This document shows positions 4,487-27,640 of a stretch of 64,000 nucleotides of DNA, piece by piece (the first letter of the stretch is position 1; each line of letters starts with the position of its first letter). Source of the stretch: Candidatus Babeliales bacterium (GTDB lineage: Bacteria; Babelota; Babeliae; Babelales; JANWKD01). The position numbers and the translations under genes are program-made. The notes beneath the pieces are model-generated. The model was not told the origin of the DNA. It did not search any database and saw nothing but the letters and a program-made list of their open reading frames with translations. The stretch is from NCBI GenBank assembly GCA_963722255.1, contig CAVRJO010000001.1:608001-672000 (forward strand), read 5' to 3'.

Positions 4487-4549
4487 AAAGAATTAACTTT
4501 CAATAAAACTGTTAGTATAGCTCCAAAAATATGGCTCGTTCACTCTAAC

Positions 4550-5425: not shown

Positions 5426-5630
5426 AAAAATTTCTCCAACTCGTTATAAATTCCAAAAACTGCTTTGGCTCCTTCTATTCATGTAAAAATTTCAACTCTA
5501 TCTTGAGAAGATTAATCGTAAAAAATAATATTTGTCAAACTTACTCGCATGGAAATTATTACTAAAGTTGCAAAAGCCTACAATTTGATTAAATTCTACT
5601 CATAATTGTTACCCAAGTCGGAGTTAGTAG

Positions 5631-6635: not shown

Positions 6636-6686
6636 TACCTTTACAAAAAACTTTTGCATACTATTGTGCTAAAAAAAGGAGAATGA

Positions 6687-7382: not shown

Positions 7383-8535
7383 TGAGTAGTTAATAATGAT
7401 TATGATGGGTTGCAGATTGCAAAATCTTTATTATGTTCTTGAAGGATTTTTAAAAACAAATATCCCTCTTATAGGATGGAATGGTAGTTCATTAATCCCA
7501 TTCCTTGGTGCTGATGATATTGGTATCTATGTTATAATTCCCCAACTTGTCCGATTCTTTACTATAAATTTGGATCAAGCAATTAATCTCTTCTTTTATA
7601 CGCTTCTAGTCAGCAGTTTTTTATTAAGCTTATCTGGATTTTTTTTGTTATATAAAACATTTGTAACTCGTTGTATTGCAACAGGCTGGCTATTTTTTTT
7701 AGCATACTTCATTATGCGCTACAAAATTGGTGATGTATATCTTGCATATTGCATTGCGCATTTAGCAATTATTCCCTTATTTTTATATTTTATTACGTTT
7801 AAAAATTCGTCCTCACGAGCATTTTCATTCTATCTAATATTTGCAGGTATGCATTGTGGCATCTTACATTATATTCGTTCATTTTCAAGTCTTGGTGTGG
7901 TTATTTTTATGCTTTTTATACTTATCGCAGAAAAAAACTACCTCCTTAAAAAAAAGCTACTCTTATTAAGCTGCTTAGGCATTGGTATACTCTGTCCTTT
8001 TTTATATTTTAAAAATATTATTACAACCTATGAACAGTATGCCAGCAAAAATTTTACTTCATTCACTGAATTTCCAACAGTCCATCCCTTTTGGCACAAT
8101 ATATATTTGGGATTTGGTTTTTTAAATTTTGAAAATATTACCAAAATACAAATGAATGATGAATATGCTTGCTTAAAGGTCCAAGAAACTCATCCTGGCC
8201 TTACATTGGTAGATACTACACCCTACGAAGCGGTATTAAAAAATGAAGTAATTTCTTTATGTACAAAACGACCAATGTATGTTCTATTTACCGTTTTTGC
8301 AAAGCTTGGCATCCTCTTTTTATATCTTCTTATTTTTGCAAATCTTGGTATATTAGTGTTTTTCTAAGGCCTAAAAACTGGCTTCTTGAATTGGCATTTT
8401 TCATAGCAGGAATAGCAAATATGATTGTTCCAATAATTTCCGCTCCTTATTATTGGTATTCATTGGGGTTCATAACCATAGCATCTTTATATGGTATCGT
8501 AAGTTGCAATGAGGCAATAAGAAATTTAATATTTC

Positions 8536-10409: not shown

Positions 10410-10466
10410 CAAAAAAATCTGCTTGTAAAACACAAGCAATTCAATTTTCATAAAAAAAGGAAAATA

Positions 10467-12222
10467 ATGAAGCTGTCGAAATTAATTTTTGTAACAATGT
10501 CCGCAGGTTTTTCATTTATATTATTTCCAAAGCTACATGATATTACAATAGACCTCTTCTGAAACTATAAATTTTGTGGTAAACTTATAATTGATTTGAA
10601 AAGAAAGGGTAAGCGATTATGAAGTATGAAAATTTAAAAATTTATCAGAAGAACACTTTAGAAGAGTGACTGGTGTAAAACGAAAAACATTTGAAAAATT
10701 GGTATATATTTTAAAAGAAGCTCAAAAAAAAAAAAAGTCAAAGGGTGGACGTCCAAATAAACTCAGTATTGAAAAAATGCTTTTGATGACTCTTGAATAT
10801 ATAAGGGAATATCGAACGTATCTTCATATTGCGACAAGTTATGGCATTGCTGAAAGCAATACATTTGAAACAATACGATGGGTTGAAAATACACTTATTA
10901 AAAGTAAAGAATTTAGATTGCCAGGGAGAAAGGCTTTACTGAAAAGTGAAAATGAGTTTGAAATTATTTTAATAGATGCAACTGAAAGTCCTATTGAACG
11001 TCCAAAAAAAAACAGCGGTAATTTTATTCTGGAAAAAAAAAACGTCATACGAAAAAAACGCAGGTAGTGGTAGATAAAAAAACAAAAGAGATTGTTTGTA
11101 TAGATTATACAAATGGTAAACGGCATGATTTTAATCTTTTTAAAAATTCAAAAGTACATTTCGAAAAATCTACTGAAGTACTTACAGATACAGGTTTTTT
11201 GGGTCTATAAAAAATTCATAACAATACAGAGATGCCAAAGAAGAAAAGTAAAAAAAATCCTTTGACATGAGAAGAAAAAGAAAGAAATAGAGAATTATCA
11301 AGTGAGAGAGTATTAAATGAGCATGTAATTGGAATGGTAAAACGATTTAAAATATTTGATAATAAATATCGAAATAGAAGAAAAAGATTTGGGATGCGTT
11401 TTAATCTGATTGCGGGTATTTATAATTTTGAGTTGGTAAAATGAGTTTCAGAAGAGGTCTAATATATTCCTCTGATTATTCTAATGTTGGATTCGGCTAT
11501 AATGATAGCAATATGAAAACTAATGGAGAATATACTGTCATTAAAGAATTAATTATGCCGAATGATATTCTTTTTGATATTGGCGCCAATCGAGGTGAAT
11601 CGGAGTTTGGCAGTATATATCAACAGTACCAACTATTAACCAAATCTATGCATTTGAACCAATTCCAACGATTTTTAATATATTGCAAGAGAACATATCA
11701 AATAATCCAGTAAATGCCTATCAATTAGCTATGAGCGATGTTACTGGTGTACGAGAGTTTTTATATTATCCACAAAATGAAAATGTATCTGAATTGAGTG
11801 GTTTCTATTTACGCCCTATTCTCTATGACTTATTAGGTATAACACCAGAACCCATTAACGTTAATTGCTCTACATTAGACACATTTTGTTTTGAAAAAAA
11901 CATACACCATATCGATTTTTTAAAAATTGATACAGAAGGATCAGAACTAGCAGTTTTAAGCGGCGCACAAAAGCTTTTAAAAGCTCAGCAGATTAAACAG
12001 ATTCAATTTGAATATGGTGGTACTTATACTGATGCAAAAATAACTCTTAAGCAGGTAATGACCTTGTTAACTCATTATAAATATGTTCTCTTTAGAGTTT
12101 TCGATAGTGGACTTATCCATATAACAAATTGGAATGATACTTTAGAGAATTATGCGTATTCTAATTACATAGCTATACAAAAAGAACACGCATATCCTTT
12201 TACCTTGATTGAGAATCTATAA
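10467..12222 (+). pseudogene. FkbM-family methyltransferase with signal peptide, interrupted by an IS and frameshifted near 11600
   Basis: Removing 10551..11459 and one TA gives in-frame ...LHDITI-IYSSDYS...FDIGANRGE; later IYAFEP and IDFLKIDTEGSE. Confidence 0.8.
10551..11459 (+). mobile_element. IS5-family (ISL2/IS702-like) element with inactivated transposase
   Basis: Terminal IR GACCTCTTCTGAAACT/AGTTTCAGAAGAGGTC with TA duplication; IDATESPIERPKK; A9 slippery site; in-frame stops at 11019, 11208 and 11268. Confidence 0.9.
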
Positions 12223-13145
12223 GAGCCTGTCTGAAAATTAAATTTTTCTGAAAACGATGACTAGACAAGCAAATTGAACTAGCCCAAGAAAGTTTTTAGA
12301 TAGCTTGTCATAACGAATGAAAACGCGTCTGAATCGATTCATCCAAGAAAATGTTCTTTCAACAACCCACCGTATTGGATCTTTATTTGTTGTAACTCGA
12401 GGTTTATTTTTGGGTTTTTTTAATGGCATTACCGGCGTAAAGTTTCGTTTAATAGCTTCTTCCTTATTTTTTTTAGATACGAAGCCCTTGTCAGTGCGAA
12501 GATAATGATTTCTTGATTGTGGGATTTGATACTGTAAATTATCAATAAGAGGAACAAATAATTGCGTGTCATGTCGATTTCCACCCGCAACGGTAGCGCT
12601 AAGAGGAAGTCCCAATTCTTCAACAACAAGATTTAATTTGGAGCCCAATTTTCTTCTATCAACAGGGCTAATTCCCGTTTTGTCTCCTCCAAGAGGCGCT
12701 TTTTTATGGCATGAATCTATAGATTGATTTTCAAGACGAAGTCCTTTTGTTCGATCATAGTGCATTAAAATTGATTTCCAAATTTTTTGAAAAGCATTTG
12801 CTTTAACTAGTTCTCTAAATCTGTGATAAACGGTTTTTGCTGGACCAAAGCATTTGGGCAGCGCATCCCACTGACATCCTGTCTTGAGTAAATAATATAT
12901 TCCTGCTATTAATGGATCATTATCTGAACGTGGTCGACCTATTTTACTTGGTGGCATATAGACTGCAATAAAATTATGAAATTCTTGTAAAAGTTCTTTA
13001 GATATGACATATTTTGATGGTATAATTTCTTCGTAATTTAAATGCTTCATATGAAAAAATCCTTCTTTGTTTGTGTAGTAACAACAAGAGGGATTTTATT
13101 TTTTTTATTTATTTTTTCAACTGCCTTGAGTTTTCAGACAGGCTC
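12223..13145 (-). mobile_element. IS5-family element, copy 1
   Basis: IR GAGCCTGTCTGAAAA/TTTTCAGACAGGCTC; TAA target duplication, which is the stop codon of the FkbM gene. Confidence 0.93.
12238..13050 (-). CDS. IS5-family DDE transposase
   Basis: TGCQWDALP, IDS, DKG and RWVVERTFSWMNRFRR motifs. Confidence 0.93.
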   Translation of the reverse strand: MKHLNYEEIIPSKYVISKELLQEFHNFIAVYMPPSKIGRPRSDNDPLIAGIYYLLKTGCQWDALPKCFGPAKTVYHRFRELVKANAFQKIWKSILMHYDRTKGLRLENQSIDSCHKKAPLGGDKTGISPVDRRKLGSKLNLVVEELGLPLSATVAGGNRHDTQLFVPLIDNLQYQIPQSRNHYLRTDKGFVSKKNKEEAIKRNFTPVMPLKKPKNKPRVTTNKDPIRWVVERTFSWMNRFRRVFIRYDKLSKNFLGLVQFACLVIVFRKI

Positions 13146-13213
13146 TAAAGCTGCTTATGAAAAATAACTATTACTGCAGTTGAACTTTCGCGTAGTAATT
13201 TATCAAATTTTTC

Positions 13214-14089
13214 TTACAAAGAAGCTTGAAAGTCTTTGATGAGATCAACCCAATAATCCATATATAATTTATCGAAATTATATGTTTTATCCTTCATTTC
13301 TTCATAGCATTTCATCAAATATGCTGGAGTAACATCTTCCCACTCATTAACAATAATTACCGGTAAATCTTCATACAAAGGATCTAATGTTGAGGTTTTA
13401 ACAACAGGTATTGAACCAACGAGCAAGGTCTCCCAAGTTCTATGACAATCAAGTCCTCCACCAAATGGACTTAGAATAAAAGCAAACTCTTGAATCTCAA
13501 ATAAAAAATCTCTTATCGGTTTTAATGAAGCAAGTTCAACAAAGGGCTTATTTTTAAAGATTGCATAGACATTATTTCTTCCCGGTGTCGTCAATGCAAT
13601 ATTAACATACAATGTATCAAAATTTTTCTTTACCGGATGCATTTCCATATAATCAAGTATTTCATCAAACATTTTGGGATCTCCTTTGGGCCATTTTGGA
13701 TAATTTGGAAGACCAATTGGAATTACCGTAAACTTAGGATGAGGATTAATATTACAATTTTGACCAAACCACATCAAAATCATTGGATCTTCAAGAAAAC
13801 GGCTATAATTACCAGGCGCAGAATAATCACCATTATGCGTTATCAATATGAAGGGATTTTTAAATCGATTGAAAACATTACTAAAAAAATAATCAAGATA
13901 ACATATATCACAATAAACTATACTCTTTGCTGGAACACGCGAAGGATCAAAGGGACAATAGTAGTTGTCAATTTTATATGTTGCCAAATCTCTAAATTTA
14001 TTTCCTGAAATGTAATGTCTTTCTTTACTTTCAAGTTTCATTGAATTTACAATAAAAACTAGTATCAATAAGTGCTTTAGATACTTCAT
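13214..14089 (-). CDS. Exostosin/GT47-like glycosyltransferase with signal peptide
   Basis: FILSPFGGGLDCHRTWETLLVGSIPVV resembles the exostosin C-terminal motif. Confidence 0.65.
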   Translation of the reverse strand: MKYLKHLLILVFIVNSMKLESKERHYISGNKFRDLATYKIDNYYCPFDPSRVPAKSIVYCDICYLDYFFSNVFNRFKNPFILITHNGDYSAPGNYSRFLEDPMILMWFGQNCNINPHPKFTVIPIGLPNYPKWPKGDPKMFDEILDYMEMHPVKKNFDTLYVNIALTTPGRNNVYAIFKNKPFVELASLKPIRDFLFEIQEFAFILSPFGGGLDCHRTWETLLVGSIPVVKTSTLDPLYEDLPVIIVNEWEDVTPAYLMKCYEEMKDKTYNFDKLYMDYWVDLIKDFQASL

Positions 14090-14229
14090 ACTATTCCTTT
14101 CTTAACAATAGATTGAACCATTCTTTTGATATTTTATCCTTTTTTTTAAACTTGACAAATAAATAAGTTTATTATTCGCTATCAAAGATTTAACCCTTAA
14201 ATAGATCAATATATGAGAGGTTCTTCCCT

Positions 14230-15711
14230 ATGAAGTTAATTTCACTCTATTCATTGCTAGTGCTTTCAAACCTATATATTAGTATTCAGTCAAATCAAAA
14301 TTTACCTGAAAAAAAAATTGTTATTGTTATACCTTCCTATAACAATCCACTCAAATTTACACGTGAATGTTTAGAATCTGTTCTTATGCAAAAATATTCA
14401 AATTATGAAATACTATTTTCGGATGATTGCTCGCCCCAACCAAATATTGAACAAATTCATAAACAACTTATTGCAGAACTTGATATGCATAAGAGAATAA
14501 CGTATAGACGAAATAAGCAACGATTGGGTCCACTTGGCAATAGATGGAATGCAATTCATAGTATCAATCAAGATAATATCGAAGATAATAGAAATATAAT
14601 TGTGGCAAATTTGGATGGAGACGATATATTTCTTCGTTCTGATGCACTTACAATAATTAATGAAATGCACGAATATGCATGGACTACGTGGGGAAGCTTC
14701 AGTATTTTACCGTCAAAAAATATTTATAGCGCATGCCAACCCGTTCCTGCACATGTTATCGCTCAAAACAACTGGCGTTCATGTCCCATTAGTTTAAGCC
14801 ATGTACAAACCTATCGGCTCAGTTTACTCAAAGATCTGCCATTATATACCTACCTTTATCATGGTAATTTTTATCCTGCAGCAACTGATCTTCAGTCTAT
14901 ATGGGGAGCATGTGAAAAGTCAGGCATTCATACTGCATTTAATCCCATACCTGTCTATGGATACCGCTTACACCCACAAAATGAAATGAACCGTGAAGAA
15001 GGCCGCAAAGGAGCCGATTGCCTTGCTCATGCTAAAGCACAAACCCCATTTCAACCATTACAAGCACTTCCTTTTCAACGACCTTTAGATTCATATCATG
15101 CTGATTTGATTATATTCTCTGAAAATGATCCGTTAACACTTTCTGAGATTTTACAAGCAGTAAAAAAAAATATACCCGATCTGCAAACGACTTTTGTACT
15201 CTACAAAAAAAATGAACAATTTAGTCACACCTATGATTGTCTAAGGTCAAATTATCCTGATATTCGTTTTATTGAATTTTCGCTTAATTCAGATGAAAAT
15301 TTAAAAAATTTATTATTAGATTGTTTAAAGGCTTCGACAAGTGACTATGTTCTATTCTTACGAAATGAAATCCCTAAAACTTTTCTACCAATTAAAAATT
15401 GTATCCGAGCTTTACTAAAAACACATGGCTATATGTTTTATACTTGTTCAGAAAATTTACCCAGCGATAACCTCATCGATATCGATGATACCATGGTTGC
15501 TTGGAGCTTCGATGCCCTCAATAACAGAGCAAAAAATTGGCATCTGAATAAATTTTTCAATCTAACTTTATTTGCAAAAAAACAAATCATAGAATCTTTG
15601 TTTTCAGTGAAGCATAGTACCATCAACACTATTGAATCTCAATGGAATAATTATGTAAACACACAACAAAATACGATTGGCTTAGGATTTTCACCATGCA
15701 TTATAGAATAA
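14230..15711 (+). CDS. GT2 glycosyltransferase with signal peptide and a second, degenerate GT-A-like domain
   Basis: IVIPSYNN, DDCS, LDGDD; C-terminal half aligns by eye with 16940..18001. Confidence 0.8.
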   Translation: MKLISLYSLLVLSNLYISIQSNQNLPEKKIVIVIPSYNNPLKFTRECLESVLMQKYSNYEILFSDDCSPQPNIEQIHKQLIAELDMHKRITYRRNKQRLGPLGNRWNAIHSINQDNIEDNRNIIVANLDGDDIFLRSDALTIINEMHEYAWTTWGSFSILPSKNIYSACQPVPAHVIAQNNWRSCPISLSHVQTYRLSLLKDLPLYTYLYHGNFYPAATDLQSIWGACEKSGIHTAFNPIPVYGYRLHPQNEMNREEGRKGADCLAHAKAQTPFQPLQALPFQRPLDSYHADLIIFSENDPLTLSEILQAVKKNIPDLQTTFVLYKKNEQFSHTYDCLRSNYPDIRFIEFSLNSDENLKNLLLDCLKASTSDYVLFLRNEIPKTFLPIKNCIRALLKTHGYMFYTCSENLPSDNLIDIDDTMVAWSFDALNNRAKNWHLNKFFNLTLFAKKQIIESLFSVKHSTINTIESQWNNYVNTQQNTIGLGFSPCIIE

Positions 15712-15726
15712 AAATAAAGGGGAAAA

Positions 15727-16917
15727 ATGAATATTATGGCGGATCGCCTTCGTTATCTACAACAAATTATTGATGGTTTCTTACAAACAAAAACACCTTT
15801 ACTATTATTTGATGGCAAAAGTTTGTTTCCTTTTTTTACTTTTGATGACATTGGTATATATGTTTTTATTCCCCAATTAGTAAGATTTTTTGGCATAACT
15901 TTAGATCAAGCAATTAATATTTTTTTCTATGGCTTTTTAACCAGTTCATTCTTACTTGGCCTCATTGGATTTTTATTGCTCTATAAATCTGCCATAACCA
16001 AATTTATTGCAACGACTGGATTACTCTTACTATTCTACTTTGTTATTAAATTCGAAATAACTGATGTCTACCTTGCTTATTTAGCTTCAGCTGTATCTAT
16101 CATTCCTTTATCATTGTATTTTACAATGAATAATACAAAATCAATTTTATTCTATTTTTTCACGATTTTTTCGGGTCTAATAGTTGGAACGTCCCACTAT
16201 ATACGAGCATATTCAGGCCTTGCTCCGTTAATCTTCCTTATTATTCTATTGATTTTCAATAGTACAATAAACGGTATGAAGAAATTTTTGTTACTTATTT
16301 GTATTGTTCTAGGAATGACAGGCCCTTATTATTATTTCAATCAAATTATCCATCAGAACAAACAATTTGCAGAACAGCATTTCCCTGATTCAAATCAAAT
16401 AATTCATCAACATGTCTTTTGGCATCCTATTTATTTAGGATTTGGTTTTTTAAACTGCATGAATGAAGACAATATTCAATACAAGGATAGCTTCGGTCTT
16501 GAAAAAGCAAAAAAACATAATCCTGCTATTTCTTTTGAAAAAACTAAAGAGTATGAAGAAATTATAAAAAATGAAACATTCTTACTTTGGAAAAAACAGC
16601 CTTGGTTTGTTTTATTTACTATTTTTGCAAAAATCGGAGTATTATTGTTTTTTTTCCTGCTTTTTTCAAACTTTGGATCAATTGCTGCATTCTGTTTTCC
16701 TAAACCATGGTATATCGAAGTTGCATTTCTAGCCAGCTTTGGCATTAACGCACTATTTCCCCTACTAGCTGTACCTTATATTGCATATTCTATAGGATTT
16801 ATCGCCGTTGCAACTTTATATGGAATCGTAAGTATTAATCATGCAATTAGTTTCATTAACTTTAAAAAAATTATAGAGAATAGCAGAAGATTAATAAGCA
16901 ATATTGGAATACAATAA
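15727..16917 (+). CDS. Multi-pass membrane protein, putative GT-C-type glycosyltransferase
   Basis: About 10 hydrophobic segments, DD motif before the first helices, glycan-island context; paralog of 7396. Confidence 0.6.
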   Translation: MNIMADRLRYLQQIIDGFLQTKTPLLLFDGKSLFPFFTFDDIGIYVFIPQLVRFFGITLDQAINIFFYGFLTSSFLLGLIGFLLLYKSAITKFIATTGLLLLFYFVIKFEITDVYLAYLASAVSIIPLSLYFTMNNTKSILFYFFTIFSGLIVGTSHYIRAYSGLAPLIFLIILLIFNSTINGMKKFLLLICIVLGMTGPYYYFNQIIHQNKQFAEQHFPDSNQIIHQHVFWHPIYLGFGFLNCMNEDNIQYKDSFGLEKAKKHNPAISFEKTKEYEEIIKNETFLLWKKQPWFVLFTIFAKIGVLLFFFLLFSNFGSIAAFCFPKPWYIEVAFLASFGINALFPLLAVPYIAYSIGFIAVATLYGIVSINHAISFINFKKIIENSRRLISNIGIQ

Positions 16918-16939
16918 AATAATCAAAAAAGGAAACAGA

Positions 16940-18001
16940 ATGGGTTTAAAACAAATCTTTAATATTTTGTTTATAATAATAATTTTCATTAGCCCTTGCA
17001 TTACCTTACCTACTATTTTAGAGCATACTGATTATAAACAAAAAAATATTGTCATCTTTCCTTCATCTGATGAACACTTAGAAACTACTCATCAGCAATT
17101 TGTTGACTTTAATCGAAAAACGAATTTAATTATTTTTTCATACAAGCGCCCTATGCAATTATATGCACTTCTTGAATCCCTCCAAGAATATGTTACCGGG
17201 TTAAATCAAATTATGGTGCTTTATCGAGCCGATGACGAACGTTATGAACAAGCATATAACTCAGTTAGAGCTGATTTTGAAAACATACTATTTGTTCAAC
17301 AATCAAAATATAACCCACATTCTGATTTTAAACCCTTATGTATGGATTTATTAAATTCTTATGAAAGTGACTACATTATGTTTGCAACAGATGATAATCT
17401 TGTTAAAGATTATGTATCCATAACGGATTGCATTCAAGCCTTAGAACAAACTAAAATTTATTTTAATCCTCAAGAAAAATCTATCGAAGGGCTGGAACAA
17501 ATTCATGCTTATGGTTTTTATTTACGCCTTGGCAAAAACTTACATCATTGTTATCCTATGAATTCTCAACAAGCAATCCCCTTTTTAACCACTTTAAATA
17601 AATCTATATTTGCCTGGCAAATTATAGAATCTGAAGGCTCACTAACCTATGATTGGAGCTATCCCAATACGGTTGATATGACCATTTATCCTAAGCAACA
17701 GATCATAAATACTCTGCAAACTATAGAGTTCACTAATCCAAATACTCTTGAAGGAAATTGGGCCCGGTTGGCTAACCACAATTCATCAAAAATCGGACTC
17801 TGCTTTGAAAGGTCTAAAATTGTAAATATTCCGATGAATAGAGTCCAAGATGTCTCGCCAATAAATAGAAATATGGATCAAGATCCTCAAGAACTCCTAG
17901 AACTTTTTGAACAAGGATTTAAAATAGATCGTAGCCCTCTTCATCAATGGCAAAACAGCTCTGCACACGCTGAATGTCAGTTTGTGTTTAAGCAACGTTA
18001 A
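16940..18001 (+). CDS. Putative GT-A fold glycosyltransferase with signal peptide
   Basis: IIFSYKRPMQLYALLESL, FATDD, NPNTLEG; RBS AAGGA before ATG 16940. Confidence 0.6.
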   Translation: MGLKQIFNILFIIIIFISPCITLPTILEHTDYKQKNIVIFPSSDEHLETTHQQFVDFNRKTNLIIFSYKRPMQLYALLESLQEYVTGLNQIMVLYRADDERYEQAYNSVRADFENILFVQQSKYNPHSDFKPLCMDLLNSYESDYIMFATDDNLVKDYVSITDCIQALEQTKIYFNPQEKSIEGLEQIHAYGFYLRLGKNLHHCYPMNSQQAIPFLTTLNKSIFAWQIIESEGSLTYDWSYPNTVDMTIYPKQQIINTLQTIEFTNPNTLEGNWARLANHNSSKIGLCFERSKIVNIPMNRVQDVSPINRNMDQDPQELLELFEQGFKIDRSPLHQWQNSSAHAECQFVFKQR

Positions 18002-18061
18002 AAACGCAAAAAGCTTCACATAAAAAATTGGAAGCTCCTTTTAAAGTTATCTAAATTTTTT

Positions 18062-18763
18062 TTAGTTTTGAACTAACTCTTTTCTTACAAAAAGTACATC
18101 ACCAAAAGTACTATGATGCATAATTTTTTTAACAACTACAAAACCTTGTTCTTCCATCCAGGCTTTAAATTCATCAAACAATGGAGCATCCTTATAAAGA
18201 TTTGTATAGCTTACTTCGGTATAAACAACTTTCACCGTCCTAAAAATCTTTGGTGAAGCTTTTAATACCATTGGCTCAACGCCTTGTAGATCAAACCACA
18301 AAAGATCTATATGATCGATGCCCATTTCTTCAGCCCATCTATCTAATGTTGTTGTTTCGACCATTATATTATTTTGAAACGTTATATGTGGAAAATAAGT
18401 AAGATGTTCAACGGGCTGCAATAAAGAACTTGACTGATCTCCTCCATAGCTAATAAACATAGAAACCTCACCAACTTCATCACTCAGCGCCTTTTGCATA
18501 CATATAACATTTTTACAACTTTGAGTATTTGCAATCAACCGTTTAAATATGTGAGGAACAGGTTCAAATGCATAAATCATACCTTCAGGCCACAAGCGGC
18601 TCATTTCTTGCGTATCAGTCCCATCAAATGCACCGGCATCAACCACTATGGGATTTTTTGGTAAAAATTTTGCAATTGAATTTTTTGATAGATTTTCTGC
18701 CTGAATAGTAATAGTTCTAAAACTAACAAAGACTAAAATCGTATATAACGTTTGCTTATTCAT
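18062..18763 (-). CDS. FkbM-family methyltransferase with signal peptide
   Basis: VDAGAFDG, YAFEPVP, IDLLWFDLQG, YTEVS. Confidence 0.9.
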   Translation of the reverse strand: MNKQTLYTILVFVSFRTITIQAENLSKNSIAKFLPKNPIVVDAGAFDGTDTQEMSRLWPEGMIYAFEPVPHIFKRLIANTQSCKNVICMQKALSDEVGEVSMFISYGGDQSSSLLQPVEHLTYFPHITFQNNIMVETTTLDRWAEEMGIDHIDLLWFDLQGVEPMVLKASPKIFRTVKVVYTEVSYTNLYKDAPLFDEFKAWMEEQGFVVVKKIMHHSTFGDVLFVRKELVQN

Positions 18764-19303
18764 CTAAAAACTCTTTTTGTTTGATTTTTTATTATTTCAC
18801 TACTACAAATATTTTTAATTAAGAATATAATCACTCCTTTCGAATATCTTTAATCATCTCTCGAGAGATTAGTAGTAAATAATAGTATATGTCAAATTAT
18901 TAGCGAGGATAAAATTTTCATACCATTTGATTTTATAAATTTTTACGCATAATTTTTTATAGTTATAAAAAATGAAGAGATATAGTGGAATGATTTTGGG
19001 TGAACTTGAGAAAAGAATATTTACATTAACTTCACCAGAAATAATTCAAAGTCTGTTCAAAGCCTATAATTATAAATACGAAAAGCGTTATGCAGAAGCA
19101 GCAGAGCAGTTTTATAATGCACTTAAATTAGGGTGAACATCTTCTAAAATTCATCGATATGCCGAAGAAATGTATACATTATCAAAAAAAATAAGAAACG
19201 TTACACGCACACCAAATAATTGTATTCAGAATATATTTTTTATAGTATTTTACACTTAAATAATTCGACAAACAATTGCTGAAACAATAATAAATCAATA
19301 AAG

Positions 19304-20239
19304 ATGAATAATAAAAAGAAAATATCAATCATTGTTCCTGTATATAATGAAGAAAAAAACATACCGCTCCTTTATGCAACAGTTCTAAAAACTATTGCAC
19401 AAATCACAGAATATGAATATGAATTTATTTTCATCAACGATGGCAGTAAAGATAATTCATGGACAATTATTAAAAACCTTCCAATCTCAGTCGCTTCAAT
19501 AAAAGCTCTTAATTTCAGTAAAAATTTTGGACATCAAATCGCCTTAAGTGCAGGATATAATCATGCAACTGGTGATGCAATAATATCTATGGATGCTGAT
19601 CTGCAGCACCCTCCTGAAACTATTCCATCTATGATCAAAGCCTGGCAAAAAGGATTTGACATTGTATATGTAAAAAATGTAACACGCAACGATAGTTTTT
19701 TAAAAAAAATTTGTGCTTTAGGCTATTATAGATTTTTAGGCTTACTTTCTGAAATTAAAATTCCTCGTAATGTTGCCGACTTCCGACTTATTGATAAAAA
19801 AGTTCTTGCAATTATTAATCAATCTGAAGAAAAGGCACCCTATTTAAGAGGCATGGTTGCATGGACCGGGTTTAAACATACTTTTATAGAATCTACTTTT
19901 GCAAAGCGTCATTCAGGAATTCCGGGATATACGTGGAGCAAAATGTTTAAACTTGCTCTTGATGGAATAGTTAGTTTTTCTTCATCACCATTTCAATTGC
20001 TAGGATTAATAAGCTTATTCATAACAATCTCCGGATCATCCTTATTAGTTTACTTAATAGTAAACAGTCTCATTTTTTATAAAAATTATTCCGCACTTAC
20101 GTGGATCCTTACAATACTATATTTTTCTATGGGGATTCAATTGATAGTTATATCATCTATTGGTGAAAAAATTGTAATGATGTACAACCAAACTAAAAAT
20201 AGACCTTTGTATATTATTGCTGACAAAATAAACTGCTAA
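19304..20239 (+). CDS. GT2 polyprenol-phosphate glycosyltransferase; paralog of 5631..6635
   Basis: IVPVYNEE, NDGSKD, DADLQHPP, ADFRLID, RPLYII. Confidence 0.92.
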   Translation: MNNKKKISIIVPVYNEEKNIPLLYATVLKTIAQITEYEYEFIFINDGSKDNSWTIIKNLPISVASIKALNFSKNFGHQIALSAGYNHATGDAIISMDADLQHPPETIPSMIKAWQKGFDIVYVKNVTRNDSFLKKICALGYYRFLGLLSEIKIPRNVADFRLIDKKVLAIINQSEEKAPYLRGMVAWTGFKHTFIESTFAKRHSGIPGYTWSKMFKLALDGIVSFSSSPFQLLGLISLFITISGSSLLVYLIVNSLIFYKNYSALTWILTILYFSMGIQLIVISSIGEKIVMMYNQTKNRPLYIIADKINC

Positions 20240-20240
20240 A

Positions 20241-20948
20241 CTATTTAAAAATCCAATTAGGTCTTAAAACAGATCGCGCATCATACAAATAACGAAGAAA
20301 GAATGGCTGATTGATTCGACTAATTTTTCTATCCTTTGGCTTTGCCATCAGTGCAATTTTTTTCTTGAGTCGATCAAATTTTTCATCATATAATTTGACC
20401 ACATCATATCGATCGTCTATAAGCACATTCTCTTCATTGCGCGTTGTACCGCTAATGGTAGCATTAGCAGAACCACTCCAAATTATCTTTTTATTACATA
20501 AGTTTTGTCCAAAAACCCAAAATTTATTGTGCATTATAGAATAATACTTTTCACCATAGACATAGACGGGAATATCATAGCTTCTAAGTTCAGTAATTTT
20601 TTCATGTTTACTTGCTAAACAACTTTTATCGGTAATAATCTCTATTTTAACACCGCGACGATGTGCATCGATTAATGCATCAAAAAGGTCTGGATCAGTT
20701 AATTGGTACACCGCAGCTTTTATATACCAACGCTCGCTATATATAAGCCCTAACAAAACTTTTTTTACCGGATCATCAGGAACAAATAATACTCCTTCAA
20801 CTTTATTTCCCGGTTTAACCAAACGTTGTTTGGCATATTTTTTACAATCAAGTTGATCATAATTGGTTTTTGTGGAAACTAAAAAAAAGTAACTGCCTAG
20901 TAAGAGTACTGAAAGCAGCGTTGTGACTAAAGTTGAATTTTCAAACAT
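20241..20948 (-). CDS. Phospholipase D/Nuc-family protein, single domain, with N-terminal anchor
   Basis: MHNKFWVF...SGSANAT...NEEN; ALIDAHRRGVKIEII. Confidence 0.85.
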   Translation of the reverse strand: MFENSTLVTTLLSVLLLGSYFFLVSTKTNYDQLDCKKYAKQRLVKPGNKVEGVLFVPDDPVKKVLLGLIYSERWYIKAAVYQLTDPDLFDALIDAHRRGVKIEIITDKSCLASKHEKITELRSYDIPVYVYGEKYYSIMHNKFWVFGQNLCNKKIIWSGSANATISGTTRNEENVLIDDRYDVVKLYDEKFDRLKKKIALMAKPKDRKISRINQPFFLRYLYDARSVLRPNWIFK

Positions 20949-21184: not shown

Positions 21185-22015
21185 ATGCACGTTATGAAGT
21201 TTTTCAAAAGTTTTAGTTTTGTCATAATTCTTGCGGCTTATTGTTCTTTTCTTAAAGGACATTTTGATGACATCCTCTTAATTATAAACTACAATCATGC
21301 CCATTATGAATCAATTCCCTTATTAAAAAAAATATATGGTACCTATTTTAAAAATATAGTCTTTTATGGACCAACCAGACATGATGTAATTGAATTACCT
21401 CATTTTAAAGGCTTTTTCAGTTATCTTTGCATTTCAGATGCTATGAAAAGCCATCCAAATTTTAGTGGTTATTTATTTTTACATGATGATTGCATACTAA
21501 ATCCTACACTTATTAAAGATCTAGATCTGAAAAAAATTTGGTTTCCATCACTATTTTATTTTAAAAGTGACAAAGGAAATCCTATCAATATAACGCAGGG
21601 AATCTCAGCTACAACATGGTGGTATTGGAATTCCCAATGGGGATTTAACCCTACTGTCAAAGCATTTAATGAAATGTCAGAATATAATAAAAATATTTTG
21701 GAAACAAATTGGGAAAAATCTAATGTTGTAGTTGCATTTACTGATATTGCTTACATCCCTTCTGCATATCACGGTCAATTTATTGAACTTGCAGAAATAT
21801 TTGGAAAACATAAAGTATTTTTAGAAATTGCACTTCCAACCATATTATTTTCCTTGTCTTTAAAAAAAGATTGGGAATGGTTGCCAGGAAAAAGCAATTA
21901 TTTAAATCCCATAAAGCTTTTTGATAAAAATGCAATTTTTAATCATCCACTAAAACTTTCTATAAAAGAACATCAACAGTTCATTAATCAATTTTTTAAT
22001 AAACTATTAGATTAA
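21185..22015 (+). CDS. STELLO/DUF288 C-terminal-domain-like putative glycosyltransferase, paralog 1
   Basis: ILLIINYNH...IVFYGP...GFFSYLC...GYLFLHDD...FLEIALPT...HPLKLS. Confidence 0.65.
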   Translation: MHVMKFFKSFSFVIILAAYCSFLKGHFDDILLIINYNHAHYESIPLLKKIYGTYFKNIVFYGPTRHDVIELPHFKGFFSYLCISDAMKSHPNFSGYLFLHDDCILNPTLIKDLDLKKIWFPSLFYFKSDKGNPINITQGISATTWWYWNSQWGFNPTVKAFNEMSEYNKNILETNWEKSNVVVAFTDIAYIPSAYHGQFIELAEIFGKHKVFLEIALPTILFSLSLKKDWEWLPGKSNYLNPIKLFDKNAIFNHPLKLSIKEHQQFINQFFNKLLD

Positions 22016-22068
22016 AAATTATAATTTTTATTTTCTATAACATTTTTCATTGCGATAAAGGAATTACA

Positions 22069-23154
22069 ATGTTTTTTGTATGTCGTTTATTTACTATACT
22101 GAGCTTTACCTTTATCATAAATTTAGCTCAGTGTTCACAATTTCATGACAAATGGATTGTTGTAACCACCATTCAATATCCAACGTTAGCTCTAAAAAAA
22201 CTTGCATCATTATCAGATTGGAAACTGGTTGTCATAGGGGATAAAAAAACACCAAGAGATTGGTATTTAGACAACTGTATATTTTTAGATGTTGAAGCTC
22301 AGGAACATTTGCCTTATAAAATTATTTCGCTCTTACCTTGGAATCATTACTGTAGAAAAAATATCGGCTATCTTTATGCAATAGAACATGGTGCTTCAAT
22401 AATCTATGAAACAGATGATGATAATATATTGTTTAATGATATTGTATATCTTCCAGAGAAAACTGCTCTAGAACAACTTCTTACTCAACAAAGCACTACT
22501 AATGTTTATGCACTTTTTGGACAACCTACTGTTTGGCCGCGAGGATATCCATTAAGCAAAGTAACTACACCCAACAACTATCATCTTATAACACAAGAAG
22601 TTATGATACCAATTCAACAAGGGCTTGTTAACGGTGATCCAGATGTTGATGCACTATTTAGACTTACTCATGCACATGAAACCACCTTTGATAATCGAAA
22701 GCCAATTTGCTTACAATCGGGAACGATGTGTCCATTTAATACACAAAATACCCTTTTTTATCGTAGCGCATTTTGGGGTTTGCTCATACCAATTACCACA
22801 CCATTCCGTGTATGTGATATTTGGCGGGGCTATTGGGTTCAACGTTTACTTTGGGATATGAATGCAGCACTCTGTTTTATATCACCAACAGCGGTGCAAT
22901 ATCGCAACCAACATGACCTACTCCAAGACTTTGCTGGAGAACTTGATCTTTATTTAAAAACAGAAAAATTAATTGCATCACTTAATGAATGGCATTCTAA
23001 TGCCCAGTTTTTTGATCAACGCATGAAGGAACTTATGCATTTTCTGATTGAACGAGATTTCTTCAAAGCAGTCGAAATCGAGTTTGTTGAAGCCTGGATT
23101 GAAGACTTACAGCGACTTAATTATAGAATGCCGAATTTAGAAAATATCTTTTAA
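22069..23154 (+). CDS. STELLO/DUF288-family glycosyltransferase (N-terminal domain only)
   Basis: KWIVVTTI, VVIGDKKTP, RKNIGYLYAIEHGA, ETDDDN, DPDVDA, PFNTQNTLF, FRVCDIWRGYW. Confidence 0.85.
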   Translation: MFFVCRLFTILSFTFIINLAQCSQFHDKWIVVTTIQYPTLALKKLASLSDWKLVVIGDKKTPRDWYLDNCIFLDVEAQEHLPYKIISLLPWNHYCRKNIGYLYAIEHGASIIYETDDDNILFNDIVYLPEKTALEQLLTQQSTTNVYALFGQPTVWPRGYPLSKVTTPNNYHLITQEVMIPIQQGLVNGDPDVDALFRLTHAHETTFDNRKPICLQSGTMCPFNTQNTLFYRSAFWGLLIPITTPFRVCDIWRGYWVQRLLWDMNAALCFISPTAVQYRNQHDLLQDFAGELDLYLKTEKLIASLNEWHSNAQFFDQRMKELMHFLIERDFFKAVEIEFVEAWIEDLQRLNYRMPNLENIF

Positions 23155-23182
23155 TCTGTCATTTAACAAAGGATATAAAAAA

Positions 23183-24016
23183 ATGCTATTTGTTAGATAT
23201 TTTAGTTTAACCGTAATTTTAGTTAGTAACTTTTATGCTCTCAAGGCAAATCTTGATAACGTTCTTCTTATCATTAACTATAATCATGCACATTATGAAT
23301 CAATTCCTTTATTAAAAAAAATATATACACCTTATCTTAAAAATATTGTTTTTTATGGACCTACGGCAAATCCAGAAGTAGTTGAATTACCTCACCACAG
23401 AGGATTCTTTAGCTATCTTTGCATTGCAGATGCTATGGAGAAAAATCCTCATTATGCTGGATACCTTTTTTTAATGGATGACTGCATTCTTCATCCTTGG
23501 CATATTAAAGAATTAGATGTAACAAAAATTTGGTATCCTTCAATGATGTTTCATCTCAAAGAAAAGGGAAATCCAATAAATATCATGCTAGGAAACTCGG
23601 CAACATCATGGTATTGGTGGTCAACTCAATGGGGATTAAAGCCTACAATTAAAGCCTTTAGCGAAATTCCTCAATTTTATAAAAACATTCTAAAAGAAAA
23701 TTGGGGGAATTCTACTGTCGTTGCAGCATTTTCAGATATAGTGTACATACCCTTAGAATATAAAAACAATTTTATTGAACTTGCCAAAATTTTTGGAAGA
23801 AATCAGGTCTTTTTGGAAATTGCTCTACCAACAATTATGAATTGTATATCTTTAAAAAGTGAATGGATTTGGTTACCAGGACAAGGTACTTATGGACGAC
23901 CATTAATCGATTATAATAAAGATGCAATTTTTAACCATCCCATAAAGCTCTCATTCAATGCGCATAGGATCTTTATCGATCAATTTTTTACTCAAAAAAT
24001 GAATGAGCTTAAATGA
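23183..24016 (+). CDS. STELLO/DUF288 C-terminal-domain-like protein, paralog 2
   Basis: Same motifs as 21185..22015. Confidence 0.65.
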   Translation: MLFVRYFSLTVILVSNFYALKANLDNVLLIINYNHAHYESIPLLKKIYTPYLKNIVFYGPTANPEVVELPHHRGFFSYLCIADAMEKNPHYAGYLFLMDDCILHPWHIKELDVTKIWYPSMMFHLKEKGNPINIMLGNSATSWYWWSTQWGLKPTIKAFSEIPQFYKNILKENWGNSTVVAAFSDIVYIPLEYKNNFIELAKIFGRNQVFLEIALPTIMNCISLKSEWIWLPGQGTYGRPLIDYNKDAIFNHPIKLSFNAHRIFIDQFFTQKMNELK

Positions 24017-24063
24017 TATAAGAATTTCAATATCAACTTTCAGCAAAGATGCAATGGTTATTA

Positions 24064-24919
24064 GGTTCTGTGAACCAAATTTTACCTAAGCCAAATTAAG
24101 GTCCCTACAAAATATAAAAAAGATAAATAAGATTGAGAAGATTTATCGAATCGCGAAAAAATCCTACGAAAATGTTTAATTTTTCCGAAAAAACATTCGA
24201 TGGAATGTCGCTCTTTGTAAAGATGAACATCATAGTCACGAGGCTGCTTACGATTTCTACGAGGAGGAATTTCTGGCTTACATCGTTGATCTTTTATGCT
24301 TTCAATGAAATGATCAGCATCATAAGCAGTATCTCCAATGATAGAAGCATCTACAATACCAGTGCTCAGATTTTTTGCTTGAGTAATATCATGTCGTTGA
24401 CCGGGTGTTAAAACAAATTTTAGTGGATTTCCCAATGCATCAACCAAAGCGTGTATTTTTGTTGAGAAGCCGCCCTTGCTACGTCCTAACGCCTCTTGTT
24501 CTTGAGTATCTTTACCATATCCAGCTGCACATGCATGTGCTCTAATAACTGTAGAGTCTATCATTGCCCATTCCATATCAGGATCTTCTTGAAAACTTTC
24601 AAATAGTTTTTTCCAAATATTACGTTTATTCCACTGCTTAAATCGCTTGTGAACAGCTCGCCAACTACCATAATAAATTGGCAATAATCTCCATTGGCAA
24701 CCGCTTCTGCATATGTAATATATTGCCTCTATAAATTTACGTAATTTTTCAATAGACTTCTTGTGAATCCCTTTGATGCTCATTAAAACATTCAATATTT
24801 TTTCAAAATCTGTATCATTAATTAGGTAATGCATTACAAGCTTCCTTTTGTTTTTTTAGTTGATTAACAAAGGAAGCTTATCTTTTTTTAAGCATTTTTT
24901 AAATTTGGTTCACAGAACC
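24064..24919 (-). mobile_element. IS5-family element, second type, intergenic
   Basis: Perfect 19-bp IR GGTTCTGTGAACCAAATTT; TA duplication. Confidence 0.93.
24082..24834 (-). CDS. IS5-family DDE transposase
   Basis: SGCQWRLLP, IDST, GRSKGGFSTKIH, DTAYD, ERHSIECFFGKIKHFRR. Confidence 0.93.
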   Translation of the reverse strand: MHYLINDTDFEKILNVLMSIKGIHKKSIEKLRKFIEAIYYICRSGCQWRLLPIYYGSWRAVHKRFKQWNKRNIWKKLFESFQEDPDMEWAMIDSTVIRAHACAAGYGKDTQEQEALGRSKGGFSTKIHALVDALGNPLKFVLTPGQRHDITQAKNLSTGIVDASIIGDTAYDADHFIESIKDQRCKPEIPPRRNRKQPRDYDVHLYKERHSIECFFGKIKHFRRIFSRFDKSSQSYLSFLYFVGTLIWLR

Positions 24920-24961
24920 TAAGAACAACCGCAGGTTTTTATTGAATTAAAAAGAGATATT

Positions 24962-26707
24962 ATGAAAAGAAAAAATATACTACATGCATCGTTTTTTTTA
25001 ATGAGTTTTGGGATCTTTAACTTTATTCAAACCAATCAATTTGCTTTAATTTCTATTCCAAAATGCGGAACTTATCTTTTATTAAAAACCTTGAGATCAA
25101 TAACCGGAAATACCAAACCTCAAATTGAACCTAAGGGATGGACTTTAATTACTGATGCTGTCATGAATACCTTCTTTAAAAATCAACTATTTTTAGTAGC
25201 TCATGCATTTTATGTTGATGAAAATATTAAAAAACTTAATAATAAAAATATTAAAACTTTTTTTATATATCGAGACCCTCGTGATCAAATTGTATCAACT
25301 GCTTTTTTTATAAAAAAACCAAAGACTTCTTGGAAGTTACATTCTAAATGGGATTTAGATCAACTTATAGATGAACTCATAACTAAGAGCCTGTCTGAAA
25401 ACTAAATTTTTCTGAAAACGATGACTAGACAAGCAAATTGAACTAGCCCAAGAAAGTTTTTAGATAGCTTGTCATAACGAATGAAAACGCGTCTGAATCG
25501 ATTCATCCAAGAAAATGTTCTTTCAACAACCCACCGTATTGGATCTTTATTTGTTGTAACTCGAGGTTTATTTTTGGGTTTTTTTAATGGCATTACCGGC
25601 GTAAAGTTTCGTTTAATAGCTTCTTCCTTATTTTTTTTAGATACGAAGCCCTTGTCAGTGCGAAGATAATGATTTCTTGATTGTGGGATTTGATACTGTA
25701 AATTATCAATAAGAGGAACAAATAATTGCGTGTCATGTCGATTTCCACCCGCAACGGTAGCGCTAAGAGGAAGTCCCAATTCTTCAACAACAAGATTTAA
25801 TTTGGAGCCCAATTTTCTTCTATCAACAGGGCTAATTCCCGTTTTGTCTCCTCCAAGAGGCGCTTTTTTATGGCATGAATCTATAGATTGATTTTCAAGA
25901 CGAAGTCCTTTTGTTCGATCATAGTGCATTAAAATTGATTTCCAAATTTTTTGAAAAGCATTTGCTTTAACTAGTTCTCTAAATCTGTGATAAACGGTTT
26001 TTGCTGGACCAAAGCATTTGGGCAGCGCATCCCACTGACATCCTGTCTTGAGTAAATAATATATTCCTGCTATTAATGGATCATTATCTGAACGTGGTCG
26101 ACCTATTTTACTTGGTGGCATATAGACTGCAATAAAATTATGAAATTCTTGTAAAAGTTCTTTAGATATGACATATTTTGATGGTATAATTTCTTCGTAA
26201 TTTAAATGCTTCATATGAAAAAATCCTTCTTTGTTTGTGTAGTAACAACAAGAGGGATTTTATTTTTTTTTATTTATTTTTTCAACTGCCTTGAGTTTTC
26301 AGACAGGCTCTAATTGTGGATCAATTTGGAGTGCAGTATATAACGGTAAAGAAATATGGGAAAAAACACCTGATATTTCATCATTTTATAATCTTTTTTT
26401 ACCATGGCAATTGGTACCGAATATTTATACAACTACCTTTGAAAAATTAGTTGGCCCTCAAGGTGGAGGAACATTAGAAGAACAACTAAATGAAATTATT
26501 GCAATAGCTAATCATATGGGCACAAAAATGGACCAAACGCAAGCTTTAGAAATAAGTAATAACTTATTTGGAGAAAGTATAACATTTCGTGAAGGTAAAA
26601 TAGGTTCATGGAAAAAATATTTCTTAGAACGTCATAAAGATGCTTTCAAAAAAGTTGCCGGGCAGCTTCTTATTGATTTAGGCTACGAAAAAAATTTGAA
26701 TTGGTAA
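24962..26707 (+). pseudogene. PAPS-dependent sulfotransferase split by IS5 copy 2
   Basis: SIPKCGT (5'-PSB), YRDPRDQIVS (3'-PB), FREGKIGSWK; removing the IS and one TAA restores ...ELIT-NCGSIW in frame. Confidence 0.88.
25387..26310 (-). mobile_element. IS5-family element, copy 2, near-identical to 12223..13145
   Basis: Same IRs, TAA duplication, identical 270-aa transposase at 25402..26214. Confidence 0.93.
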
Positions 26708-26833
26708 TTTCTGAAAACTCAATTCTGATTTTTTTTAGAATTATCGCTCAATATTTTATAAAAATATTTCTAGCCTTTTTATAACAGTCATGTTAAAAAT
26801 TCACAGTGAGATATAAAAAATAAAAAGGATATC

Positions 26834-27640
26834 ATGAAATTTTTTAAATATTTAAGTGGACTTATAGTAATTATTGTTAGTATTTGCAATGCACATTATG
26901 ATGATATTTTGCTTATTATTAACTATAATCATGCCCATTATGAGTCAATTCCCTTATTAAAAAAAATATACAAACCATATTTTAAGAATATTGTATTTTA
27001 TGGACCTACCGCAAATCCAGAAATAATTGAATTGCCTCATTATAAAGGCTATTTTAGTTATCTATGCATTTCAGATGCTATGGAAAAATATCCAAATTAT
27101 TCTGGATATCTTTTTTTAATGGATGATTGCATTCTCAATCCTCGTCTGATTGAAGAATTTGATGCTACAAAAATTTATTATGCATATTGCGTTGAACATC
27201 AAAAAACATTTCCAATAGATTTAAAAACTGGCCCTTCTTTCTATTGGAGCTGGTGGACAACCCAATGGGGCTCAACAGCATTGAAAGCCGCTCTTAATGA
27301 ATTGCCAATGCATTATAAAAATATACTCGAAGAAAATTGTGGTAAAAATGCCATTGTTGGAGCTTTTTCAGATTGTGCATATATTCCTTCATCTTATAAA
27401 AATCAATTTGTAGAACTTGCTAAAATTTTTGGTAAACATCAAGTTTTTCTAGAAATTGCATTGCCAACCATTCTTTGTTCATTGTCATTAAAAAATGAAT
27501 GGATGTGGTTACCTGGAAGAAGTATCTACACAGATCCGTTAAAACTTTTTGATAGAAATGCAATCTTTAATCATCCAATAAAACTTTCTATTAAACAAAA
27601 CCGAGATTTTATTGAAAAATTTTTTAGTCAAAATTTTTAA
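26834..27640 (+). CDS. STELLO/DUF288 C-terminal-domain-like protein, paralog 3
   Basis: Same motifs as 21185 and 23183. Confidence 0.65.
   Translation: MKFFKYLSGLIVIIVSICNAHYDDILLIINYNHAHYESIPLLKKIYKPYFKNIVFYGPTANPEIIELPHYKGYFSYLCISDAMEKYPNYSGYLFLMDDCILNPRLIEEFDATKIYYAYCVEHQKTFPIDLKTGPSFYWSWWTTQWGSTALKAALNELPMHYKNILEENCGKNAIVGAFSDCAYIPSSYKNQFVELAKIFGKHQVFLEIALPTILCSLSLKNEWMWLPGRSIYTDPLKLFDRNAIFNHPIKLSIKQNRDFIEKFFSQNF

Follow-up and report, generated by a model that had tools for sequence, protein, structure and literature searches.

The window analysed here is a stretch of 64,000 nt (positions 608,001 to 672,000 of the forward strand of contig CAVRJO010000001.1, assembly GCA_963722255.1) from the genome of a Candidatus Babeliales bacterium, which has a GC content of 34% and comprises 1.62 Mb in two contigs. 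It carries four genes, named here after their first positions (21185, 22069, 23183, and 26834), that correspond to the two halves of the eukaryotic protein STELLO (PF03385, formerly DUF288): a tblastn search of the genome found the C half exactly three times and the N half exactly once (Table 1). Dependentiae/Babeliales provide the nearest relatives that carry a name. The N and C halves are a real, conserved two-gene module, and both have folds of known kinds. The four open reading frames (ORFs) are intact, with a separate start, leader, and stop codon for each, and they lie on the forward strand with the motifs that had been quoted for them in a preceding reading made from the letters and translated ORFs of this DNA (the sequence-only reading). 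The start of 21185 is more likely the ATG at 21194, because a database protein (P0009) begins there and an AGGA is located 8 nt upstream of this ATG. The first three genes are separated by gaps of 53 nt (21185/22069) and 28 nt (22069/23183), a spacing from which they probably share one transcript; scans for promoters and terminators remained at chance level (34 against 38.0 and 3 against 2.9, respectively). The third paralog is cut off from the other STELLO genes by two insertion sequences (ISs) of the IS5 family and an interrupted sulfotransferase gene.

Table 1. Genes and elements at the STELLO locus, in window coordinates
Feature	Position	Strand	Remarks
STELLO C-half paralog 1	21185..22015	+	276 aa ORF; start likely 21194, giving 273 aa; signal-like N terminus; GT-A domain
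STELLO N half	22069..23154	+	361 aa; GT75 (MtdL/RGP)-like fold; signal-like N terminus
STELLO C-half paralog 2	23183..24016	+	277 aa; ortholog P0008 (73%)
IS5-family element	24064..24919	-	terminal inverted repeats; transposase 24082-24834; 4 copies per genome
Sulfotransferase_1 gene	24962..26707	+	signal-like N terminus; IS inserted at 25387-26310
Second IS5-family element	25387..26310	-	transposase 25402-26214; TAA target duplication; 5 copies per genome
STELLO C-half paralog 3	26834..27640	+	268 aa; GT31-clan-like GT-A fold; ortholog P0005 (75%)
Glycan island around the STELLO genes	3623..20948 (island 3.6-27.6 kb in all)		Pfam/NCBIfam matches

The products of 21185, 23183, and 26834 share the quoted motifs and are 58-62% identical to one another (tblastn E 1e-102 to 1e-107). 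An assembly duplication is ruled out by this divergence and by the separate orthologs of the paralogs, and a single frameshifted gene by the leader that each ORF possesses and by the recurrence of the pattern in 15 other genomes. In a Pfam scan of the window, which covered mainly the ORFs within 2.4-30.4 kb, PF03385 matched the N gene at profile positions 1-112 (E 1e-16, 61.2 bits) and the paralogs at about positions 195-320 (21185, E 1.6e-3, 17.8 bits; 23183, E 8.6e-6, 25.2 bits; 26834, E 1.2e-6, 28.0 bits), the cut-off of 27.8 bits being passed by 26834 alone among the paralogs. Thus, the Pfam model straddles two domains, taking in the last 112 positions of N and the greater part of C. A profile built from the paralog family finds the C-terminal half (the last 250-300 residues) of STELLO-type proteins of N-C order at E 1e-27 to 1e-37, so that the profile match to STELLO C-termini, on which the sequence-only reading had made its identification depend, exists. 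The top Atlas match of the C half is “STELLO2” (0.97), and its Atlas neighbours are one mostly eukaryotic, one viral, and one bacterial cluster (0.96-0.97). By these family matches, the three products are the STELLO C half. NCBIfam contains a model for neither the N nor the C half, and a PDB sequence search with the C profile returned no match at E up to 10.

The structural model of 22069 (predicted local distance difference test, pLDDT, 96.2) retrieved MtdL as the first Foldseek match (E 1e-24, template modelling score, TM, 0.79, 24% identity) and rice UAM2 as the second (E 6e-12), with the third at E 2.5e-5. MtdL is also found by sequence (phmmer E 1e-20, profile E 9e-31), and the Atlas neighbours of the N half are UDP-arabinopyranose mutases (0.97-0.98). 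In Pfam, 22069 matches PF03385 alone at E up to 0.1 and does not match PF03214, the reversibly glycosylated polypeptide (RGP) family. As modelled, the N half is sister to the GT75 mutases of nucleoside diphosphate (NDP)-pyranoses; the sequence-only reading overlooked that it most resembles such an NDP-sugar mutase rather than an ordinary transferase. A GT75-related region of STELLO had already been pointed out (excerpts of PMC4906169). The residue mapping to MtdL rests on excerpts of PMC9937993, in which R159 is the proposed nucleophile, D260 the proposed base, and H287 an Mn ligand. MtdL D109-111 (the DDD motif), R159, D195, Q229, R257, D260, R289, H292, and S228 correspond to D116-118, R158, D192, Q226, R247, D250, R279, H282, and T225 of the N half, respectively. 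At the eight sugar-site positions that were mutated in MtdL (excerpts of PMC9937993), the N half is identical at six, including R158 and D250, and conservative at one. R158, D192, Q226, R247, and D250 are invariant in 120/120 near homologs, and R158 also occurs in nearly all viral homologs; as judged by this conservation, the covalent machinery of the N half is kept across bacteria, phages, and giant viruses.

The model of 26834 (pLDDT 94.5) has a GT-A fold that stands alone. In the VIA comparison, the best match is CHSY3-CHPF (Z 15.5, root-mean-square deviation, rmsd, 3.0, 194 residues aligned), followed by B3GalT5, B3GalT6, C1GalT1, B3GNT2, Fringe, and the galactofuranosyltransferase GfsA (Z 13.4-11.9). 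These top seven rows all belong to the GT31 clan (rmsd 3.0-4.0, or 7.9 for GfsA, over 190-212 residues), with GT14 enzymes close behind (Z 11.8-11.3); a fold search of viral proteins with the C half gave generic GT-A matches only. Six polar residues, D97, D98, D180, E207, H247, and K250 (the last two forming a His-x-Lys), recur in 231-239 of 240 stand-alone domains, in 14-16 of 16 N-C fusions, and in 32-33 of 33 C-N fusions, in sets that contain near-duplicates. E207 (235/240) stands at the start of helix 206-217 and H247 (238/240) ends strand 245-247. The GT31 motifs include the DxD of motif II, the base of motif V, and a metal-binding C-terminal His (excerpts of PMC11538602); a by-eye mapping onto these would make D98 and H247 metal ligands and E207 the base. 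The suggestion of the sequence-only reading that the C half is an independent glycosyltransferase is therefore borne out as far as an independent GT-A domain with catalytic-looking residues, including its DD (D97 D98), is concerned, and transferase activity is predicted. An origin of the two halves by internal duplication was ruled out by hhalign (N versus C, probability 0.7%).

The three C paralogs are unlikely to be equivalent. Ortholog pairs are formed by 23183 with P0008 (73%) and by 26834 with P0005 (75%), and P0005 and P0008 probably lie on one contig of 24,294 nt. In the N-terminal core, paralogs (71-81% identity) are as similar as orthologs (74-78%), whereas in the insert 113-145 and the loop 229-243 paralogs are 26-60% identical and orthologs 60-86%. 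In GT-A enzymes, such variable regions usually bind the acceptor. Judged from these loops, the three paralogs are likely to differ in acceptor or linkage, and because the paralog-specific loops have been retained across species, the description of the C proteins as interchangeable in the sequence-only reading is probably wrong. Gene conversion in the 5′ part could contribute to the contrast between core and loops.

A survey of the class (261 genomes, some of them incomplete and some related and hence not independent) detected the C half in 18 genomes and a full N half in 17, with an N fragment in one further genome; both halves occur in 16. In all 16, no more than about 210 nt separate an N match from a C match. 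The N half is always single, whereas the C half is single in nine genomes, double in three, and triple in four, so that one N gene alongside several C genes, as noticed from the window, recurs elsewhere. The gene order is C-N in eight, N-C in four, on opposite strands in three, and C-N-C in one, the present genome. C occurs without N in G227 and G228, and N without C in G174. In two genomes the N match contains one stop codon (G108, L181:12940-13836, with an ORF of 299 aa; G004, C95:3725-4774).

Outside the class, the N half is far more common, with 7087 matches among 7994 candidates of 198-632 aa. A C profile of 57 sequences found 13 long proteins among 7101 candidates, with N before C in six (two with a weak N) and C before N in seven. 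A full HMMER search with the C profile gave 2459 representatives at E up to 0.001; among the best 150 of these, 139 were new and comprised 121 with C alone (some of which are possibly gene-model fragments), seven with two C stretches, ten N-C proteins, and one C-N-C protein. One stand-alone C protein is named as that of the cnidarian Clytia (P0060). Viral loci with N (n = 55) comprise 24 C-N fusions and 31 without a visible C, one of which has a decayed C, and the phage and giant-virus homologs are located in surface-glycan clusters. Metagenome loci with N (n = 79, L155 left out) show a separate C in 11, an N-C fusion in three, and no C in 65, many of the contigs being short. In 28 C-less loci whose neighbours were scanned, N lies mostly amid GT2, GT4, GT11, methyltransferase, and NDP-sugar genes. 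It is also fused to GT2-like domains (L084, L098) and, in a protein of 1428 aa (L158:473-4756), to two GDP-sugar dehydratase domains with a further C-terminal region. In L126, L141, L146, and L163, an unannotated, DxD-bearing, glycosyltransferase-like domain stands behind N in place of the C half; that it is a diverged C half was ruled out (probability 1.9%, four sequences). The location of N beside NDP-sugar enzymes and its fusion to glycosyltransferase and dehydratase domains are as expected for a module of donor supply. In a separate locus (L003:6874-8697), the C half is joined to a TylF-like O-methyltransferase, suggesting methylation of the sugar that the C half would transfer.

Three trees of the N half (99, 68, and 61 rows chosen from 132 representatives) were built, one of them by a quick method, with rows mostly labelled by architecture and source rather than taxon and with groups named after the first tree; “eukaryote-type” is thus an inferred label except for Clytia P0060 and the Atlas taxa. 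In all three, bacterial two-gene N and eukaryote-type N fall in one clade (Shimodaira-Hasegawa-like approximate likelihood ratio test, SH-aLRT, 100), and in the two that were drawn, eukaryote-type rows lie within a bacterial grade and the viral C-N fusions elsewhere. Approximately unbiased (AU) tests gave p 0.107 for the bacterial rows as one clade, p 0.65 for the eukaryote-type rows as one clade, p 0.103 for all bacterial rows together with a seven-row N-C clade, and p 0.02 for the window's N and its two neighbours with that N-C clade. For the C half, a tree of 116 rows separates 68 bacterial-type rows from both the N-C fusions and the group of Clytia (support 89, unstarred). Because of the AU value of 0.02 and the grouping in the C tree, a recent split of an animal-type gene is rejected by the trees. 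The sequence-only reading, which regarded the locus as a split eukaryotic gene and called for a phylogeny to orient the transfer, thus finds agreement in the common N clade and is compatible with the trees as an ancient split (p-AU 0.10) but not as a recent one, and the trees do not place the bacterial genes inside the N-C fusions. Since each half occurs widely alone and fusions exist in both orders, the reading as a split gene is unsupported; the simplest reading of these sequences would be two independent fusions.

All four STELLO proteins and most soluble enzymes of the island begin with a basic-then-hydrophobic leader. As to the donor, the genome has manC, fcl, and gmd: the second contig (about 537.7-548.8 kb) holds manC, fcl, and a frameshifted gmd (L179:7678-9879 and 16038-18798), the frameshift being either real or an assembly error. 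At this locus, an EamA transporter, a candidate nucleotide-sugar transporter, adjoins manC and a GT2 gene resembling Dol-P-Man synthase. A second gmd of the present genome (G000 C1:502420-503535; L187:8421-9536) encodes a Gmd with a signal-like leader. Such leaders also occur on Gmd in G109 and, of 31 Gmd ORFs sampled across the class from the 30 best-scoring loci, on 15 (loci L183:10604-11731 and L195-L214); some genomes carry both a leader-bearing and a leaderless Gmd. GDP-mannose 4,6-dehydratase is normally a cytoplasmic enzyme. Among the 16 genomes with N and C, 14 have gmd; in at least six it is no more than 7 kb away from N, and in G109 it is next to N. The leader-bearing Gmd and the proximity of gmd to N suggest that GDP-sugar chemistry may take place outside the cytoplasm, fed by export or by the host cytosol.

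The island in which the STELLO genes are embedded includes two NodZ-like fucosyltransferases, GT2 enzymes, an RXYLT1-like protein, a PLD-family protein, FkbM and class I methyltransferases, and the sulfotransferase gene. Two of its GT2 enzymes (in 5631-8367 and 15727-20239) are GtrB/PgfS-like, each near a polytopic membrane protein that has no Pfam or NCBIfam match; a comparable arrangement is located beside N in G108. The island proteins at 7396-8367, 13214-14089, and 16904-18001 have weak or zero family matches; the latter two bear signal-like leaders and may be additional unrecognised transferases. The IS at 25387-26310 is identical at 897 of 924 nt (97%) to a copy at about 12223-13146, which sits at the end of an FkbM methyltransferase ORF (11683-12222); with this third copy, IS5-family elements have hit the island at least three times. 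Elsewhere in the genome (G000 C1:795232-797822), two tandem tmRNA genes encode different tags.

A feasible model, to which we assign a probability of roughly 45%, may be that an exported enzyme that reshapes a sugar donor, probably a pyranose-furanose mutase, feeds three acceptor-specific transferases. The stand-alone, GT75-like N protein would supply a new donor form by remodelling a nucleotide sugar, most likely from pyranose to furanose via an arginine-sugar intermediate, and the three stand-alone GT-A C proteins would transfer that donor to different acceptors of a glycan. The donor would be a GDP-sugar of the GDP-fucose type, N and C would be exported via Sec, and the product would be a cell-surface glycan, probably built outside the cytoplasm. 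N and C would be coupled through a shared metabolite, in which case one N can serve several C proteins and the halves can be fused in either order; the likeness of N to a GT75 NDP-sugar mutase would likewise explain one N per several C proteins without a heterodimer. The structural claims in this model are strong, and the chemistry is an inference to which we commit ourselves.

Several observations weigh against this model. In the N half, MtdL D87 and the Mn ligand H287 are replaced by Y94 and Q277 in all 120 near homologs; a Tyr at the D87 position of AtRGP2 abolished the furanose product, and the inactive AtRGP5 has a Tyr there and lacks H287 (excerpts of PMC9937993). Nevertheless, D87S kills MtdL and S91D kills AtRGP2 (same excerpts), so the position is family-specific, and its Tyr in the N half may signal another sugar rather than a loss of activity. 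In Arabidopsis, complementation by STL1 required DD205-206 and DVD297-299, but STL1 carrying R271A, at the Arg of RGP self-glycosylation, or DD591-592AA still complemented (excerpts of PMC4906169). The spacing from DVD to DD is 294 in STL1 and 277-351 in ten N-C fusions (one poorly aligned), and DD591-592 is therefore probably the DD of the C half. Because R271 and DD591-592 are dispensable in STL1, the proposed relay is not the basis of the plant phenotype. Plant STL, which we take to differ at two more catalytic positions, would presumably be a partly inactive form. An identified plant STELLO sequence was not among the matches of any search, and expression constructs for plant DUF288 proteins are listed in excerpts of PMC5466300. 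One glycan cluster (L139, 3119-7032) contains both an N gene and a true RGP (PF03214), so that the two families are not redundant, and this suggests that they use different substrates. Instead of the full DxD of GT31 motif II, the C half shows xDD: in most of 240 domains the first Asp is replaced by N, M, Q, or H at position 96, and only D97 D98 are kept; with an identity of 8-13% to GT31 structures, the shared fold points to no particular donor, and the C half is not filed here as GT31. Finally, the leader test is crude, being passed by 426 of 1144 ORFs of the genome, and gmd is present in 144 of the 261 genomes anyway and is not near the STELLO locus in the present one.

A possible, if doubtful, alternative is that N acts as a transferase in its own right, either a glycosyltransferase or an Arg-mediated transglycosylase, and that N and C add alternate sugars, in the manner of two-domain Golgi polymerases. 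The Tyr and Gln changes could stop ring contraction and yet spare transfer; STL1 requires the DD and DVD of the N half but can do without R271; the chondroitin polymerase CHSY3-CHPF is also the top match of the C half, and the halves are always adjacent. However, the presence of R158 throughout the near homologs and in nearly all viral ones suggests covalent chemistry of the GT75 type, and N lacks a C half at most loci, is fused to NDP-sugar dehydratases, and is never duplicated where C is. It is most improbable that N alone is active and the C proteins are pseudoenzymes acting as non-catalytic partners, as CHPF in part is: the six polar residues are nearly invariant in stand-alone, N-C, and C-N forms, and C has been kept alone in bacteria and one cnidarian, in spite of the missing first Asp of DxD and the tolerance of Arabidopsis for DD591-592AA.

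The acquisition and splitting of a eukaryotic two-domain STELLO, with N as the constant member of an obligate heterodimer that any of three interchangeable C proteins can complete, would account for the adjacency of N and C in 16 of 16 genomes and for the well-supported clade of bacterial two-gene and eukaryote-type N, and an early placement of all bacterial rows next to the N-C fusions survives the AU test. The host class, moreover, lives inside protists (excerpts of PMC6561590). We nonetheless regard this scenario as very unlikely, since the gene order varies, fusions occur in both orders, G227, G228, and 121 of 139 representatives carry C by itself, as G174 and many loci do N, the trees reject a recent split, and paralog-specific loops are kept in orthologs. 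A host is also invoked by the idea, in our estimation quite unlikely, that the STELLO proteins are secreted into the protist and glycosylate host molecules instead of a bacterial surface glycan. NDP-sugars are abundant in the host cytosol. The leaders are signal-like, and Chromulinavorax secretes many proteins, 44% with signals (excerpts of PMC6561590). On the contrary, the GtrB-like GT2 enzymes, polytopic membrane proteins, and methyl- and sulfotransferases of the island, a flippase-family (Polysacc_synt) gene nearby in L012, and the surface-glycan clusters in which the phage and giant-virus homologs lie favour a surface glycan, as the mutase-and-transferase model assumes.

STELLO affects the assembly of cellulose synthase in plants, and the literature searched assigns it no reaction. 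The present analysis resolves STELLO into two separable units with different folds, for which donor reshaping by N and transfer by C are predicted. In the open-access literature, neither the identification of the C half as a domain of transferase type nor any report of a bacterial two-gene STELLO was found, although subscription papers and alignments given only as figures may contain one; PMC9874913 and PMC4520260 held nothing relevant. The single-domain bacterial proteins, with 250-340 residues, should be easier subjects for assays than the plant Golgi proteins, and a positive activity would establish a new family of transferases neighbouring GT31, together with a new GT75-like branch in bacteria, phages, giant viruses, and eukaryotes. 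For Dependentiae, the apparently exported Gmd and transferases suggest that glycans are made at an unusual site. It is also tempting to speculate, although we consider it rather unlikely, that STELLO was ancestrally a lumen-side pair of a mutase and a furanosyltransferase, that the eukaryotic N-C protein is a fused bacterial pair, and that Dependentiae glycosylate outside the cytoplasm in a Golgi-like manner, with exported Gmd, mutase, transferases, and methyl- and sulfotransferases fed by nucleotide sugars of the host. If so, unrecognised furanose-containing glycans would be present in cnidarians and other STELLO-bearing eukaryotes.

Among known systems, the N half is closest to the GT75 mutases (MtdL, Hyg20, and plant RGP/UAM; excerpts of PMC9937993; PDB 7xpr, 8cid), with which it shares the fold (TM 0.79), the DDD motif, the nucleophile Arg, the base Asp, a second Arg, the Gln, the Arg and His of loop A, and Thr13, as in GDP-using members of GT75. 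By contrast, it shows the changes D87 to Tyr, H287 to Gln, N42 to Lys, and S86 to His, has no PF03214 match, bears a signal-like leader, and is genetically coupled to a GT31-like partner. Similarly, the C half resembles the GT-A transferases of the GT31 clan (B3GalT5/6, B3GNT2, C1GalT1, Fringe, CHSY/CHPF, and GfsA) in fold (Z 11.9-15.5), in the acidic pair after the fourth strand, in the conserved acid that opens a late helix, and in the C-terminal His; it differs from them in the lack of a Pfam GT31 match, in xDD for DxD, in an identity of 8-13%, and, by eye, in an Asp at the Gly of motif IV and a non-acidic residue before the putative base. Arabidopsis STELLO1/2 (At2g41770 and At3g57420; excerpts of PMC4906169) share with the bacterial proteins the two domains, the DD, Arg, and DVD motifs of the N half, and, probably, a lumen-like (exported) location. 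However, each is one type II Golgi protein, as opposed to four genes with three C copies here, and the Arg and probable C-half DD that are dispensable in STL1 are strongly conserved in the bacterial proteins. The arrangement proposed here, in which a single enzyme reshapes the donor for dedicated transferases, is that of UDP-galactopyranose mutase (UGM) with GlfT/GfsA and of MtdL in A201A biosynthesis, with the differences that both partners are apparently exported here and that their activities are predicted.

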